Below are positions 50,382-56,430 of a stretch of DNA of 64,000 nucleotides, in pieces. The notes beneath the pieces were generated by a model. That model worked only from the letters and a program-made list of their open reading frames with translations. It was not told the DNA's origin and made no database searches. The position numbers and the translations under genes were made by a program. Origin of the DNA: Planctomycetota bacterium (GTDB taxonomy: Bacteria; Planctomycetota; GCA-002687715; CAIWVZ01); contig JBGANV010000008.1 of NCBI GenBank assembly GCA_044222185.1, positions 96,001 through 160,000 of the forward strand. Reading direction: 5' to 3'. Each line of letters begins with the position of its first letter. Positions within the stretch are counted from its first letter, which is position 1.

Positions 50382-51049
50382 GGTCCGACGTGTTAACGCG
50401 AAGCGCGAGCGGGTCTCAACGCGGGCCGAGGACCAGGTTGACGCTGATTCCAGCGCCTCCGCGGCCGTGCGCCGCGCCTGCACCATGGCGACAGCGCCGC
50501 ATGGGCGATGCGCGTGCGCGTTGGAGTTCGCCGCGTCCCACGCGCCCGCGGCCTCGCCCGCGCGGGCCGTCCTGAGGACGAGTCAGCCGATGGACCGAGT
50601 GCCTCGCCGCCGACACGTGATCCGATCGCCTCGATGACGCTGAGGATTGGATGGGCCGACCGCGGGTTCGCGAAGTCGACCGCGGCCGGCATGATTCCTG
50701 AACGACCACCTTGCAGCACTTCGACGGTCCGAAGTGCCGGAACCGACGGAGGTGGCGATCACAGCGAAGTCATCGACGGCACCCGCGGAGGCGAACGCCC
50801 GACAGCGCGTGATTCGACGCCGTCCACGTGCGCGAATTCTCGTACCGAGGATTGTCAAGAGAAAACACGGTCTGGCCCGAGCCGGGGGGCTGGTTGTCTC
50901 GTCGGCGGTCCTGCGTACTCTTCCTGCCCTGGAGGTCTGGTCTGCGCATGTCTCGCATGATCTCGAGCCTCGTTCGACCTGTGACGACGAGCCTCCTTGT
51001 CAACCTCGAACCAGTTGTCCGCGGTGGGATCCCGCCCGAAACCAATCCC

Positions 51050-51586
51050 ATGACACCTCCAGCTCAAGCGCCCATGGACTCGACTGAAACACTCCACGCC
51101 TCCGCGGTCGACGCGAACTTCCTCACCACCATGGATGAGATCTGTGCAGGGACCGCGGTAGCAGTCCCCGAACTCATCGAGTCGGCCGACGAGGATGAAA
51201 CAGGCCTCGCCTTCGCGCGGATCACATCGCCCCTCGGCGCCCGCGCCCCGAAGAAGAAGGACGAAGAGGAAGACGACGACGCGGACGAGGATGCAGACGA
51301 GGAGTCGGACGACGAAGCGGGCGACGACGACGAAGCGGGCGACGACGAGGAAGAGGGCGTCGACGAAGAGGACGACGACTGGGACGAGGACGAGGAAGAA
51401 GAAGACGAAGACGACGACGAGGATGACGACGAAGACGAAGACCTCGACGACGATGACGATTGGGACGAGGACGACGAAGACGAAGACGAGGATGAGGACG
51501 AGGACGAAGACGACGACGAGGATGATGACGACGACGATGACGATGATGAGGAGGAGGACGACGAGGACGAGGACTGGGACGACTGA
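51050..51586 (+). CDS. Hyper-acidic low-complexity protein (start uncertain)
   Basis: Open frame ending in ~108 codons that are almost all GAY/GAR, with mixed synonymous codons and three DW motifs. Confidence 0.6.
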   Translation: MTPPAQAPMDSTETLHASAVDANFLTTMDEICAGTAVAVPELIESADEDETGLAFARITSPLGARAPKKKDEEEDDDADEDADEESDDEAGDDDEAGDDEEEGVDEEDDDWDEDEEEEDEDDDEDDDEDEDLDDDDDWDEDDEDEDEDEDEDEDDDEDDDDDDDDDEEEDDEDEDWDD

Positions 51587-51789
51587 GGTCGCCACCGTCA
51601 TGCCCGCCTCTCGCACCTGACCGACTTTCAGCGAGCGCCCGCGGCGCGCCGTGATGGAGCGCCGCCGCCTCAGCGCCCGCAGCGGGCAGCTCCAGCCCGT
51701 GCCTGGCTCCCCGCCTTGGTCGTCGTGATGACCCCGACGACCCGCCGGCAGCTCCCGCCGCCCCACCGACTGACGCCGTCGCGCCCCGC

Positions 51790-51835
51790 AAAATGAGCGA
51801 GGGCGCGAACCCGGCAGGGTTCACGCCCTCGTCAT
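51790..51835 (-). terminator. Intrinsic terminator-like hairpin between convergent genes
   Basis: CGAGGGCGCGAACCC-GGCA-GGGTTCACGCCCTCG stem; on the minus strand it is followed by CTCATTTT. Confidence 0.6.
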
Positions 51836-51869: not shown

Positions 51870-52760
51870 TCACTTGCCCGAGGTCGCTCGAGGCGCCGGC
51901 GCGGCGACCGGTGTGGCCTTCACCGCGGGAGTCAGCAACTGCTTCTCCTCCGAGAGGAGCTTCGTCTTCTCGGTCTTGGCCGTGGTGAGATCCGTCTCGG
52001 TTTCCTTGATGGCCCTTCGGCCATTCTCGCAGTCGTGCTTCGCGACGTGGTCCTTGTGCTCCTGAAGCTCGGTCTCCAGGTTCTCGACCGATGCCGAGAC
52101 CTTGTCCAGCTTCTTCAGGAACGAGGAGTAGCGACTCACGAGGGTCGCGAGCGCATCACGGAACTGCGTCGCGGCGACCTGCTGCTGGGCGAGGAACACG
52201 GAGCTCGCGGTGATCCCGGAGCCCGCCAGGCGCGTCACCTCGTTGCCCTTCGAATCGAGGAAGATCACCGCGGGCACCGTCTTCGCGTATTGCTCGCGCG
52301 CGGCGTTGTCCCGGATGTCCTCGACGTAGACCTTGGCGTTGTTGAACCACCGCGAAGCGATGATGACGTTGTCGTCGTCGAACATGCGCTTCTCCGCCTT
52401 GGGATCGGGGGTGAGGCTGAGGAACCACACCATCCCAGGGCGAACGGCAGCCTTGCCCATGATCTCGGCGAACTCGCCGTCGAAAATCGCGTGGAGAGGC
52501 GCGGTCGCGCCGCTATACCCCGCGCGCTCGACGGTGATGAGGTGCTTCGTTTCCCACTCGATCGCAAGACGCTCCGCAGCAACGCTGCTCATCGTCTTGC
52601 CGGCGGCACCGCTCGCCGGTCCGCCCCCCGCACTGCGCGACCCACCCGGGGCCGCTTTGCGTGCGCCTCAATGTGCGCACTGCGCGTTCATCGTCGAGGC
52701 GACGACCGCCAGGAGCAGCGGTACGATCGCCAGGCCGATCCTGGCTCGTGACAGTTTCAT
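51870..52760 (-). CDS. Candidate exported selenoprotein (296 aa; C28-A-H-U31, thioredoxin-like domain, coiled coil)
   Basis: GAGGAG RBS and ATG 52760; signal peptide MKLSRARIGLAIVPLLLAVVASTMNA; TGA at 52670-52668 in frame with ORF 52592-51870 (75 nt open linker); SECIS-like hairpin follows the TGA. Confidence 0.8.
52629..52665 (-). promoter_or_regulatory. Bacterial SECIS-like stem-loop
   Basis: After UGA: GG-CGCAC-GC-AAA-GCGGCCC-[CGGGU]-GGGUCGC-GC-A-GUGCG. 7-bp apical stem, G-rich loop beginning 19 nt after the UGA. Confidence 0.7.
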
Positions 52761-52910
52761 GGATCTCCTCCGAGGTTGTCGTCCGCGCGAACCCGAGCAG
52801 TTCTCACGCGCACGTCGTTCGAAAGGCGCACCGAAGCATTGGGTTGAGGCCGTAGCATACAGTTCAGTCGACACTCAGGCCACCGGACTTTTGCCGGTTC
52901 CCATCAGAAG

Positions 52911-53837
52911 TCACCCCGCGTGCGTGAACGCGAGAAGCCCCGCCCCCGCGACACCGGCTCGGTTGCCGAGCTTCGCCCGGACGATCCGGACGCCTTTGTG
53001 CACGAACTCGAGCGAATGCGCACGAAACGCGTCCGCGACAGGCCTCAGCAACAGGGGGCCGAGGACGCTGATCCCGCCGCCAACGACCACGATCTCCGGC
53101 GCGATCACCGAGGCGATGGAAGCGAGTCCGATCCCCAGGTTCCGCCCAACCTGTCCGACGACCCGCAGAGCTCGCTCCTCGCCCGCCCGGGCCCGCTCGA
53201 TGATCAACCGAACCTCGATCTCACTCTCCCCGCCCGCTTCCCGGTAGTACCGCCGCAAGGCGTGGGTTGCGGTGTATTGCTCGAGACATCCCCGCGCGCC
53301 GCAGCCGCAGGGCTCGCCATCGGGCTGAAAGATCGCGTGGCCGATCTCCCCGCCGGTGCCGTAGCGGCCGCGGACCAGGTGCCCCTCGACGACGACGCCG
53401 CCCCCGAGGCCGGTCCCGACCGTCGCCATCAGGACGTTCCGCACGCCCCGTGCGGAACCGATCATCGACTCGCCGAAACAGGCAACCGTTGCGTCGTTCT
53501 CCGCGACGACCGGCAATCCGGATTCCGCCCGCAGGAAGTCCGCGACCGCGAGACCCCGTGTACCCAGGAGGTTCGGTGACGCCGTCACCAGCAGGCCCCG
53601 GCGCCCGGTCACCGTGCCGGGAACCCCCACGCCCACGCCACGTGGCTTGTGCTTGTGTGCCCGCGCCGTGGCCCGAAGCCGCGCGATGGCGTCGCGGAAC
53701 GCACGCTTCACGCCGGCGCGCCCCTCGTGCGCGTTCGACGGGACTTCGTCCGCGTCGAGCACACGCCCCGCGCAGTCGACGATCCCAAACTTCAGCGCCG
53801 TGCCGCCGAGGTCGAGGCCAAATGCCACGTCTGTCAT
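52911..53837 (-). CDS. ROK family sugar kinase (glucokinase-like)
   Basis: GLDLGGT, GVGVPG, ENDA, GTGLGGG, GEIGH, CGCGARGCLE, GGG. Confidence 0.93.
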   Translation of the reverse strand: MTDVAFGLDLGGTALKFGIVDCAGRVLDADEVPSNAHEGRAGVKRAFRDAIARLRATARAHKHKPRGVGVGVPGTVTGRRGLLVTASPNLLGTRGLAVADFLRAESGLPVVAENDATVACFGESMIGSARGVRNVLMATVGTGLGGGVVVEGHLVRGRYGTGGEIGHAIFQPDGEPCGCGARGCLEQYTATHALRRYYREAGGESEIEVRLIIERARAGEERALRVVGQVGRNLGIGLASIASVIAPEIVVVGGGISVLGPLLLRPVADAFRAHSLEFVHKGVRIVRAKLGNRAGVAGAGLLAFTHAG

Positions 53838-53865: not shown

Positions 53866-56430
53866 TCAGCCGTCCTTCATTCCGGGGCTCGCGCCCAGGA
53901 TGAAATTCCGGACCGGAGACAGCGGACGCAACCCGCCTGCATTCAGATCGAGGAAGGTTTCTGCACTCTTCGGAACGGGCATCGTTCCGACCTTCGCCAG
54001 CTTGGCGCGGATCTCTTCCGCGCGGGCGTGCTCGCCCGTGGCGTCGAGCACCTCGAGAAGCTCGTCGATGGCCGGCTTCCAAAGCACGATCGGCGGCCCC
54101 GAACCCGGGTTCGGGTCGTCCTGCTCGGCACGTTCCTTCTCCTCACGACGGAGGTCCTGGTCCCTGCGGACGGCCTCCAAGAGGCGCGCCTTCGCTTCGT
54201 CCAGTCGTGCGGCCCTGCGCAGGATCTGCGCGGCAAGGACGCGCGGCATGATCTCGTCGTGCCACGTCGCGTCCTCACGTGACCACCAGGCTTTCAAGAG
54301 ACCCAGGGCATCGTCGACCTGGCCCCCTGCCGCACGAATCAACGCGAGTCGCCCGGTGAGACAGCGGGACGCGGGGTGCGACTTCGGTAATTCGCGGGCC
54401 ACACCGTCGAGGAGCGTGCGCGCGCGATCGATGTGCCCGGCCTTCTGCTCGACGACGCCCAGCAGGTAGCGCGCGCCGACGGCACGGGGCTGCGCGGTCA
54501 CGACGAACTCCAGGTCGCTTCGCGCCGCTTCCCACTGGCGGTCGATGAAGGAGAGTTCCGCCTGGATGAATCGCGCCGGCGCTTCCGTCTCGCCAGAGAG
54601 GCAGGCGCGCAAGTGCTCTCGCACTGCGGTGCGGCGCCGCATCTGGTTCTCGGACTGGAATTCGGCCGGGTCGTTCGACACGCACCCCCAGAGCATGACC
54701 GCAGCGACGATGTGATCGCGGGAGTCGCCGGCGACGACGCGGGGCTCCAGGCCGCCCGGCTTCATGAGGATCGCGTCGACCTCCTGCGGCGCGAGCGGCT
54801 GCTCGCGTGTTTCGTCCGTTGGAACCAGCGCCTGTCGCGATTCGTTGTCCGGGAACGCCATCTCGGCATCGGCGTGCGTGACCCCGGCACCGCGTTTCCC
54901 GCGCGTCCACACGTCGCGCAGCACGAGTGCGGCGAAACCGTCGCCGCTTCCGACCTCACCCAACGACGCGCGAGCGTCCCCTGGTCGGCCCGCGAGGTAG
55001 TTGACCCACGCGGCAAGGCGCCGCCGCTCGAGCGTCGCCGCGGGCGCGAGGTCATCGGACCCCAGCTCGAGCGTCAGCGCGCGCGGTGGGAGTCCAATGC
55101 CGTCGGCGAATGCCTCCGGCGGAAACCACGCGAAGGGGCGGAGCTCCGCTTCGATCGCCCGCGCCCGAAGCTCCGGCCGGATCTGGGTCGTGCCGATCCA
55201 CGCGGCGACCGCGAGGATCGCGACGAACAGAGCGGCCGCGACGAGGAGTCCGCGCTTGTGGCGGTGGAGCAGGCGAGACAACGGGCGAGCCCGTTTCAGC
55301 GTGATGCGGTCCGGAGATTCCCCGCGCGCCACGCGCTCCAGGTCACCCGCGAACGCCGCCATGTCGGCGTACCGCCGCAAGGGGTCGATCTCGATCGAGC
55401 GCAGGATCACCGCTTCGAGGTCCGGTGGGACTCGTGACTCCACCTTGCGTGGTGGCGTCGGGCCGAGAGACCGGATGTGGTCGAAGAGCTCGCCGCGCGT
55501 GCGCTGCGAGAACGCCTCCGTCCCCACGCAGAGCTCGTAGAGCGACAACCCCAGCCCGTAGATGTCCGTCCGGTTGGAGACGACGCTGTTTCCGCCCTCG
55601 ATCAGCTCCGGTGCCAGGTAGCGCGGTGTCCCCATCACCTGGTCGTCGGTGACCGTCAGTTCGGGAAGGTTGGGAGCCTGCGCAATCCCGAAATCGATGA
55701 TCATGGGCTCGCCCGTGCGGTCGACGAGCAGATTGGACGGCTTCACGTCCCGATGCAGGATGCCGAACCCGTGTATGGCAGCGAACGTTCGAGCGATCCG
55801 CGCGACGAAGCGGGCGCGCTCCTGCATTCCGTGAAGGCGATGGTCGGACTGCTTCACCGTCTCGCGCAGCTTCGCGACGGTCTCGCCCTCGACCCACTTC
55901 ATGGCGATCCAGAAGCGGCCGCGCTCCTCCCCCGAGTCGAGCACCGGTACGACGTTCACGAGGTCGAGCTTGCGCAGCATGTCCGCTTCGCGCTTGAAGC
56001 GTTCGACGTCCCGCGCGTCGCCGGCGCCGCGCGCGTCCATCACCTTCAGCGCGACGATCTGACCGGAACCCGCGTGACGGGCCCGGTACACCGTGCCGCC
56101 TCCAGCCGTCGAGACATGCTCGAGACCGGTGTAGGGGCCGAGCCGAACCTCGTCGGGAGCACCGGTGGGCGCGACCTCCGTCGCCGTGATGCGCGCCGTA
56201 CGAATCGGTGTCGCGTCCGGTTCCTTCCGGGTCGGAGGCGGCACGGTGTCCCAGGCGAGAATCCGCGCCAGCTCCTCGGCGTACTTCGGATAGCGCGCGA
56301 GGTACTCGTCGAGGCTCGGGTTCAGGCCCTCCTCACGCTTGAGGATGAAGTCCGCCGCCACGTCCTCGACCGGAGGAAGGCGGCCGCCCGTCGTCACTCC
56401 GAACGGGTCGTCGTCAGGAACGGCCGGCAT
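53866..56430 (-). CDS. Hanks-type Ser/Thr protein kinase with TM segment and TPR-like C-terminus
   Basis: VALK, RFKRE, HRDVKPSN, DFG, GTPRYLAPE, DIYGLG; overlaps the upstream ECF gene. Confidence 0.93.
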   Translation of the reverse strand: MPAVPDDDPFGVTTGGRLPPVEDVAADFILKREEGLNPSLDEYLARYPKYAEELARILAWDTVPPPTRKEPDATPIRTARITATEVAPTGAPDEVRLGPYTGLEHVSTAGGGTVYRARHAGSGQIVALKVMDARGAGDARDVERFKREADMLRKLDLVNVVPVLDSGEERGRFWIAMKWVEGETVAKLRETVKQSDHRLHGMQERARFVARIARTFAAIHGFGILHRDVKPSNLLVDRTGEPMIIDFGIAQAPNLPELTVTDDQVMGTPRYLAPELIEGGNSVVSNRTDIYGLGLSLYELCVGTEAFSQRTRGELFDHIRSLGPTPPRKVESRVPPDLEAVILRSIEIDPLRRYADMAAFAGDLERVARGESPDRITLKRARPLSRLLHRHKRGLLVAAALFVAILAVAAWIGTTQIRPELRARAIEAELRPFAWFPPEAFADGIGLPPRALTLELGSDDLAPAATLERRRLAAWVNYLAGRPGDARASLGEVGSGDGFAALVLRDVWTRGKRGAGVTHADAEMAFPDNESRQALVPTDETREQPLAPQEVDAILMKPGGLEPRVVAGDSRDHIVAAVMLWGCVSNDPAEFQSENQMRRRTAVREHLRACLSGETEAPARFIQAELSFIDRQWEAARSDLEFVVTAQPRAVGARYLLGVVEQKAGHIDRARTLLDGVARELPKSHPASRCLTGRLALIRAAGGQVDDALGLLKAWWSREDATWHDEIMPRVLAAQILRRAARLDEAKARLLEAVRRDQDLRREEKERAEQDDPNPGSGPPIVLWKPAIDELLEVLDATGEHARAEEIRAKLAKVGTMPVPKSAETFLDLNAGGLRPLSPVRNFILGASPGMKDG

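Follow-up and report, generated by a model that had tools for sequence, protein, structure and literature searches.

Does a TGA that lies four codons past a signal peptide end a 30-residue peptide, or does it encode selenocysteine (Sec, U) within a longer, exported protein? The question is raised by a minus-strand locus in a 64,000-nucleotide stretch of DNA from a Planctomycetota bacterium (GenBank assembly GCA_044222185.1, contig JBGANV010000008.1, positions 96,001 to 160,000), here called the window, whose own numbering is used throughout. Judged from the sequence and its relatives, one minus-strand gene, 52760..51870, very probably specifies an exported selenoprotein of 296 residues, which belongs to a so far undescribed family of Planctomycetota. 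The gene and its immediate signals are composed as follows, in the order of transcription.

52765..52771, minus strand: Shine-Dalgarno-like GGAGGAG, 4 nt ahead of the ATG, read from the sequence.
52683..52760, minus strand: ATG and residues 1-26, a predicted Sec-type signal peptide that would be cleaved between MNA and Q.
52668..52682, minus strand: predicted mature N-terminus Q27-C28-A29-H30-U31, the Sec codon TGA being 52670-52668.
52593..52667, minus strand: linker rich in Gly/Ala/Arg/Ser/Pro, residues 32-56, disordered in the structural model; its mRNA contains a hairpin.
52637..52655, minus strand: hairpin GCGGCCC-CGGGU-GGGUCGC resembling a selenocysteine insertion sequence (SECIS), starting 12 nt past the UGA, with 19 nt from UGA to loop.
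52590..52592, minus strand: internal ATG (Met57), the false start of gene callers, which opens the listed 240-aa open reading frame (ORF).
52161..52589, minus strand: folded domain, residues 58-200, a small N-terminal subdomain and a thioredoxin fold.
51936..52151, minus strand: antiparallel helical hairpin, helices 204-241 and 245-275, with H238, H242 and C244 at the turn.
51870..51872, minus strand: stop codon TGA of the full-length gene, from the sequence read and its translation.
51798..51831, minus strand: intrinsic-terminator-like hairpin of 15 pairs followed by CTCATTTTGC, 39 nt past the stop.

The first-pass annotation, made from the letters of the window alone, had described a ribosome-binding site and an ATG at 52760, a signal peptide and then Q-C-A-H-TGA, and our reading of the minus strand matched these elements to the base. 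From the start codon (52760-52758), the frame with TGA taken as U was open to the TGA at 51872-51870; the result was a continuous 296-codon translation, in line with the proposal that the first TGA is in frame with the 240-aa ORF through an open linker. The linker (GARKAAPGGSRSAGGGPASGAAGKT) ran in frame into the ATG at 52592, and both its length and its sequence differed among the aligned relatives. Directly ahead of that ATG, where the sequence is GGCAAGACG, no GGAGG-like site was found, in agreement with the first-pass statement that the downstream ORF has no clear ribosome-binding site, and the Met57 column was not conserved in an alignment of 22 sequences. GGAG-type sites preceded the signal-peptide ATG in most relatives too. 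The only Cys or Sec residues of the window protein were C28, U31 and C244, the last one in KHDCEN, which agreed with the earlier statement that C28 has a single Cys companion. Terminator-like sites such as the one past the stop numbered 3 in the region, vs. 0.5 expected from shuffles.

The signal peptide was assigned by eye from the sequence. The 26-residue leader, MKLSRARIGLAIVPLLLAVVASTMNA, has 3 basic residues, a 13-residue hydrophobic core and Ala at position -1, and every aligned homolog has A, G or S at -1, a small or aliphatic residue at -3, and then an invariant Gln. Two other export signals were considered and rejected. For a lipoprotein, the lipobox [LVI][ASTVI][GAS]C is lacking, the invariant Gln precedes the C/U, and two relatives (L016 and L019) have Gly at the place of the lipid-bearing Cys; for a twin-arginine translocation (Tat) signal, the RR pair occurs in only some relatives.

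Parts of the 64-kb stretch were present in 20 public runs from 10 studies, and the contigs of 4 of these runs were compared with the window at the TGA. The codon was covered by a DNA contig of another study (X3, 52384-52847) and also by a contig from an RNA library (X9, 52467-52846), each taking in the signal peptide and running across the TGA into the downstream ORF. Their sole difference from the window was 52611 G>A, a synonymous change at the last position of the Ser50 codon, within the linker (codon assigned by hand). Another RNA-library run (X4) gave 2 contigs, neither of them bridging the TGA. Since X3 and X9, two independent contigs, both cover it, the TGA is not an assembly error.

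We have then used a six-frame search reading through stops against related genomes. Homologs were found in 24 of 41 related genomes, including 21 of the 23 genomes of the window's order, all Planctomycetota metagenome-assembled genomes (MAGs); the two order genomes lacking a homolog match at threshold were 86% and 76% complete. Twenty-five order loci were translated, with L030 (G008:C184) excluded, its match starting from query residue 121 and no signal peptide being seen upstream. In 23 of the 25, the signal peptide had A, G or S as its last residue and was followed by the invariant Gln and then by a TGA within 1-4 codons. The remaining two, the paralogs L020 and L029, read Q-C with no TGA. 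Hence, TGA (23/25) or Cys only (2/25) was kept at or adjoining column 31 in the translated loci of the order, as anticipated from the window sequence.

The Sec motifs of the order were QCU (11 loci), QUU (6), QGU (2), QU (2), QUC (1) and, in the window, QCAHU (1). All but one of the 11 QCU loci read Q-C-U-G, the other one (L014) being Q-C-U-S, and a lone Sec with no nearby Cys occurred in four loci (L016, L019, L022 and L028). Thus, the CxxU motif named in the first-pass annotation is present in the window, but it is not the motif of the family, given that 22 of the 23 Sec loci carried adjacent chalcogens or a lone Sec. The two-residue AH insertion was seen only in the window among the 23 Sec-bearing order loci. 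The family motif, as read from these sequences, is a predicted vicinal Cys/Sec pair at mature position 2-3; CxxU appears peculiar to the window, an odd member in which two extra residues would turn C-U into C-x-x-U.

Conservation was seen on both sides of the TGA, as both the upstream signal peptide and the downstream domain could be aligned. Q27, Y82, P108, F139, P163 and G172 were invariant in the 22-sequence alignment, and C28, S58, W69, P75, G180 and a Cys at window position 141 were nearly so. The frame from TGA to Met57 was open in all 23 order loci despite changes in length. Since the in-frame TGA is conserved in relatives, it is more than a chance event. In metagenomes, a scan with the single window protein returned no relative, and one with an alignment (A5) returned three loci, one of them new (L055, QCUG) and the other two, L053 and L054, repeats of L006 and L008, respectively; no relative closer to the window emerged from either scan.

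Beyond the order, a profile matched at least 64 of 301 sampled Planctomycetota genomes, a floor, because the profile tool applied a stricter first look. The family is therefore present in at least a fifth of the sampled genomes of the phylum. A TGA was found in 48 among the 122 matches listed, spread over 38 genomes. Fifteen loci beyond the order were translated, one of which (L075, from G024) was a weaker match from the six-frame search. In 14 of these, U stood 1-2 residues past the predicted cleavage site, within the motifs GUC (8), GUGGGGC (2), GUGGRC (1), GUGGAGRC (1), GUU (1) and GCU (1); the remaining locus, L079, had Cys only (QCKC). Side by side with these counts, we observed, in other Planctomycetota, tandem paralog pairs in five genomes (G182:C1:455044-456723, G299:C14:122370-124144, G046:C5:178520-180413, G054:C6:660929-662498 and G301:C30:299680-301373), and as many as seven family matches in a single genome (G107).

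Only 76 proteins matched at E≤1e-3 in a library of 1.84 billion cluster representatives, most of them beginning 2-7 residues into the alignment, at query positions 50-68. Gene calling had placed the starts of these proteins internally, immediately past the TGA. The window gene itself is held in databases as a 30-aa stub (P0044) and a 240-aa "hypothetical protein" (P0078). One relative, 66% identical (P0080), was named "paraquat-inducible protein B" by one source, a name unsupported here. Full-length homologs with no TGA were also found (P0013, P0062, P0022 and P0042). Because these are continuous, signal peptide, linker and domain belong to one polypeptide. In one of them the exchange can be read directly, P0062 being GCGGGGC where L070 and L072 are GUGGGGC. 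Altogether, Cys instead of or beside Sec was found in L020 and L029 (QC-), L079 (QCKC) and P0062.

The machinery for Sec insertion was present in the window's genome (7.08 Mb, 67% GC, 93.8% complete), which encodes SelA, SelB with its wing domain, tRNA-Sec about 120 nt downstream of selA, and SelD. SelD has an in-frame TGA of its own, SPGGGU-ACKIGP (G000:C14:427704-428624, locus L003), and 25 nt past this UGA lies an 8-bp GC-rich hairpin with a GUC loop, UGGCGCAG-GUC-CUGCGCCA, a useful native SECIS for comparison. SelA was encoded in 23 of 23 genomes of the order and, in the wider sample, in 37 of the 38 genomes in which a match carried TGA vs. 225 of 301 overall, counts of a kind that kinship inflates. 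The exception (G164) is a 340-contig MAG, 92% complete.

We have searched for SECIS-like hairpins past the UGA using one rule, namely a perfect stem with 5 or more pairs, a 3-7 nt loop that has G among its first two bases, and a UGA-to-loop distance of 15-48 nt. The distance and loop criteria follow bSECISearch and the bacterial SECIS literature, and the controls were about 1000 windows per locus, tiled on both strands. The hairpin of the window gene (-11.5 kcal/mol) was matched by only 5% of 1057 control windows from the same locus. All 23 UGA sites of the order had a qualifying hairpin, 18-47 nt from the UGA; at 20 of them, no more than 7% of the controls were as good, the values for the other three being 14.5%, 15.8% and 23.5%. 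RNAalifold, applied to 9 sequences of one family of the order, recovered the hairpin GGCGC-NGGNC-GCGUC, with a compensatory basal pair that was GC in 5 sequences, CG in 3 and broken in 1, a change that spans a codon boundary. Beyond the order, 13 of 14 Sec loci had a hairpin, CGCCA-GU[AU]-UGGCG being recurrent. The first-pass annotation had seen the linker as a flexible tether. The predicted disorder of this segment supported that role, but the linker is not only a tether, as its mRNA forms the SECIS-like hairpin; its Gly/Ala/Arg/Ser/Pro make-up and poor conservation are expected of a peptide with codons picked largely for RNA pairing.

Seven genome loci (L006, L007, L009, L010, L011, L024 and L081), from four genera (g2, g5, g4 and that of G054), had a tandem UGA-UGA, read as Q-U-U or G-U-U; the metagenome locus L053 repeats L006. 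As the two codons are followed by a single hairpin, a vicinal Sec-Sec pair is implied.

An AlphaFold2 model was built on the 22-sequence alignment and had a mean predicted local distance difference test (pLDDT) score of 82.6 and a predicted template modelling (pTM) score of 0.73. Arm residues 21-54 were disordered in the model (pLDDT <50), in keeping with the flexible N-terminal arm that had been postulated. After the small N-terminal subdomain, which holds the conserved S58, W69, P75 and Y82, residues 105-200 (pLDDT >90) formed a thioredoxin fold in the order beta-alpha-beta-alpha-beta-beta-alpha, with beta1 at 109-114, beta2 at 140-145, P163 before beta3, and G172 and G180. The C-terminal coiled coil of the first-pass annotation took the form of a long helical hairpin, also with pLDDT >90. 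At E≤1e-3, 9 of 10 Foldseek matches were chains of the DsbD gamma domain, which gave the top hits (E 1.5e-4 to 7.7e-4); thioredoxins were hit as well.

No Cys or Sec was found in residues 115-120, the CxxC site after beta1, nor in that column of the 22-sequence alignment, and the proline before beta3 (P163, the cis-Pro column) was invariant. A Cys opens beta2 (FFNC) in 20 of the 22 aligned relatives; the window has Asn141 there (52338-52340). The proposal of a Cys-less thioredoxin-like domain therefore stood as far as the fold without CxxC was concerned; its Cys-lessness turned out to be specific to the clade. The sequence WFNN of the window was also read in P0079-P0082, the four database relatives nearest to it (85-57% identity), and the loss of the beta2 Cys is thus an old clade feature. 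Since the window clade has Asn and about half of the loci beyond the order have no beta2 Cys either, this residue is not essential. In the helical hairpin, H238, H242 and C244 (H-x3-H-D-C, 52029-52049) were invariant in an 8-sequence subgroup (A2) and missing from most of the family; this motif at the turn is a possible metal site.

Neither the window protein nor the 22 aligned members had a Pfam or NCBIfam match, only sub-threshold coiled-coil noise being returned. The Pfam Thioredoxin_2 model scored 14.9 bits vs. a 27-bit cut-off, and none of the 22 members matched a thioredoxin model at E≤0.01. The best NCBIfam selenoprotein match was TsoB (E 0.048, 11.7 bits vs. an 805-bit cut-off), with 0 of the 22 members matching NCBIfam selenoprotein models at E≤0.01. 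These scores are weak sequence hints towards Thioredoxin_2 and the DsbD-like portion of TsoB.

The closest structural relatives, DsbD gamma/TlpA-like proteins (PDB 1vrs, 1uc7 and 2fwf), share with the family an exported thioredoxin fold (target-normalised TM score 0.56-0.61) and the invariant proline before beta3. The window family differs in having no CxxC or UxxC after beta1, its redox-capable residues lying some 80 residues upstream on a disordered arm, and in adding the N-terminal subdomain and the 70-residue helical hairpin. The arm has a counterpart in mammalian thioredoxin reductase, a cytosolic flavoenzyme whose C-terminal Gly-Cys-Sec-Gly arm carries a vicinal pair on a flexible extension. 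Vicinal Cys-Sec, small flanking residues and a flexible terminal extension are common to both, and Q-C-U-G resembles G-C-U-G; however, the arm of the window family is N-terminal, the protein is exported and has no FAD/NADPH domain, and the window reads C-A-H-U, with UU, UC and lone-U forms among its relatives. Eukaryotic SELENOS and SELENOK, membrane-anchored proteins of the endoplasmic reticulum with a SECIS in the 3' untranslated region, have a C-terminal Sec in a Gly-rich disordered segment. They resemble the window family in having Sec near a chain end within such a segment, with no homology.

Among described bacterial selenoproteins, SaoL, SaoC, SaoB, HgcA and MbdU have a CU motif, several being exported or lipoproteins and typically truncated at the TGA in databases (10.1101/2022.07.06.499078; PMC13188914). 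From the parts of these two sources considered here, they share with the window family the adjacent Cys-Sec, and differ in their unrelated folds with no sequence match, in their internal or C-terminal Sec, and in conserved operon contexts that are absent at the window family's loci. Thioredoxin-fold selenoproteins themselves are common; the same part of the review lists a thiol:disulfide interchange protein with UxxC, a UGC-containing TlpA family and Trx7/PDZ with CxxU (PMC13188914). As described there, they are likewise bacterial, have a thioredoxin-like domain and are exported in many cases, but their Sec sits in the active-site turn, whereas that of the window family lies outside the fold and the turn has no Cys or Sec. 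The NCBIfam models of these families gave no match to the window family.

The family was absent from the 119 selenoprotein families of Table 1 in this 2026 review (PMC13188914), and that table holds neither a UU motif nor a family with Sec in an N-terminal arm. No published description was found in full-text searches, in that table or in passages of 10.1101/2022.07.06.499078 and PMC4807772, a scope that leaves outside supplements such as Table S9 of PMC4807772 (planctomycete selenoprotein candidates). Within these sources, the first-pass statement that the architecture is unlike those of described families held, with no curated model matching and no entry in the 119-family table. None of the described families checked, in the portions covered, has its Sec beyond the fold at the start of the mature chain, a linker that is at once the SECIS, or tandem-UGA forms. 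The predicted signature of the family is a Sec-type signal peptide; Sec at mature position 2-3, usually beside a Cys or second Sec; a Gly-rich tether of about 20-60 residues; a thioredoxin-like domain lacking CxxC; and a helical hairpin.

What such a protein would do may be pictured as follows. SelB and Sec-tRNA would decode the UGA with the help of the hairpin embedded in the linker codons, and signal peptidase I would cut before Gln27, leaving a mature chain that begins Q-C-A-H-U (Q-C-U, Q-U-U or G-U-C in relatives). A selenol and a neighbouring thiol would then be placed at the tip of a disordered tether of about 25 residues, where they may cycle between the selenol/thiol and selenenylsulfide states (diselenide in UU forms). 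The arm would be a swinging redox arm in the periplasm, engaged in thiol-disulfide or peroxide chemistry. It may replace the lost CxxC of the DsbD-gamma/TlpA-like domain, which would serve as a docking or recognition module, with the helical hairpin possibly serving assembly or partner binding. A swinging selenol arm is favoured because the spacing between Sec and its partner varies widely and the arm is mobile. Provided that the protein is a true selenoprotein, we give this redox-arm mechanism an even chance, and the exported selenoprotein together with that mechanism seems about as probable as its contrary. A bolder proposal, which we advance tentatively and find rather doubtful, is a new architectural class in which a catalytic Sec at mature position 2-3, on a disordered Gly-rich tether whose mRNA is the SECIS, would act in trans as the active site of a CxxC-less thioredoxin fold (a "split" site), with Sec-Sec made from tandem UGA-UGA by a single hairpin in several lineages.

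Several observations weigh against the selenoprotein with a redox arm. The arm was not predicted to dock on the domain (pLDDT <50), and the "trans active site" is consequently without structural support. The arm is devoid of Cys and Sec in P0013, P0029, P0030 and P0036; given such homologs, the domain has a role that does not depend on the arm. No reductase or other partner gene was conserved beside the family loci, and the RNA-library contigs are no proof of transcription. Other points concern the hairpin. The 96-nt stretch of the window, in 67% GC DNA, folded no better than shuffles (z -0.32), and the covariation amounted to one basal pair only. Beyond the order, only 5 of 14 hairpins were in the best 10% of controls, and L078 had none by the rule used. 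L029, one of the three Cys-only genes, carries a similar hairpin by chance. RNAalifold gave no consensus for 12 divergent sequences (families f1, f3 and f4), whose nucleotide alignment was too poor, and no relevant Rfam match was found.

The rival that survives best keeps the same exported selenoprotein and changes the task of its tip, which would bind a soft metal or metalloid (Hg, Cu(I), Cd, As or an organometal) to be handed on in the periplasm, with H238/H242/C244 helping in the window subgroup. We regard this as possible, although on balance unlikely. The varied spacing (UC, CU, UU, U-x4-C and CxxU) suits a floppy chelator as well as a redox arm, the mature chains of P0029 and P0030 begin with His-Gly, a metal-binding-like end, and the three residues at the hairpin turn are invariant in the 8-sequence subgroup; the His/His/Cys cluster is nevertheless missing from most of the family, and the loci with a lone Sec lack a nearby Cys (L016, L019, L022 and L028). 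In the parts of the literature considered here, the SAO system and HgcA link vicinal CU/CC motifs with the chemistry of mercury and organometals (10.1101/2022.07.06.499078), and the review table includes CU and UxxU "metal-binding" selenoproteins (PMC13188914). The NCBIfam models of metal-binding selenoproteins, however, did not match, and no metal-resistance, transporter or chaperone gene was conserved beside the family loci. Gene neighbourhoods do not decide between the redox and the metal reading.

If the TGA were a true stop, the locus would make a 30-residue leader peptide and a separate cytoplasmic 240-aa protein from Met57. This is how gene callers read it, with P0044 and P0078 both in databases, and UGA is also the ordinary stop of the window gene. 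We consider it highly improbable: Met57 is unconserved and without a ribosome-binding site, the frame between TGA and Met57 remains open in all 23 order loci, in TGA-less homologs the chain is unbroken between signal peptide and domain, an isolated signal peptide would serve no evident purpose, and the locus has its hairpin and the genome its Sec machinery. Bacteria are known to read through UGA leakily, and decoding of this UGA by a suppressor or by a near-cognate tRNA for Trp, Cys or Arg would also explain the open frame and give a full-length protein that is not a selenoprotein, but this is the least credible reading of all, as SelA occurs in 37 of 38 genomes with TGA-bearing homologs, U is replaced by Cys and not by Trp or Arg in TGA-less homologs, the hairpin is positioned past the UGA, and the tandem UGA-UGA of 7 loci would make leaky reading very inefficient.

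The neighbouring genes in the window are the following.

53866..56430, minus strand: 854-aa Ser/Thr protein kinase with tetratricopeptide (TPR) repeats, upstream of the selenoprotein gene, same strand.
52911..53837, minus strand: ROK-family kinase, upstream of the selenoprotein gene, same strand.
50855..51766, minus strand: mirror ORF with Val/Leu/Ile/Phe runs, overlapping the acidic 252-aa ORF.
50828..51586, plus strand: 252-aa ORF with a C-terminal half of almost pure Asp/Glu and scattered Trp, just downstream of the selenoprotein gene.

Recurring neighbours (ROK kinase, Ser/Thr kinase, TonB receptor, amidohydrolase, and M14, S41 and S9 peptidases) were shared within lineages only; no neighbourhood was conserved across families, and a function based on an operon was therefore rejected. 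The ROK gene neighboured three other loci, and the Ser/Thr kinase recurred in the window's family and in f4. Large exported peptidase genes stood beside the loci or within a few kb in three lineages, namely M14 (L036, L037 and L039), S41 tricorn-like (L085, L087 and L088) and S9 DPP-IV (L031, L038, L041 and L043), which may be chance in peptidase-rich genomes. The acidic 252-aa ORF had no Pfam match.

For the Planctomycetota, the locus adds a selenoprotein family that present annotation splits in two. A Sec carried at the end of a tether, away from the fold, would be a natural bacterial counterpart of the thioredoxin-reductase arm, and it raises the testable question of why a selenol would be used over a thiol on a mobile arm in the oxidising periplasm. 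The UU forms would be natural cases of tandem-UGA recoding and may offer a system for studying how one SECIS serves two codons and how a vicinal diselenide is used. In the linker, one sequence would be under a double constraint, as a peptide tether and as an RNA hairpin.

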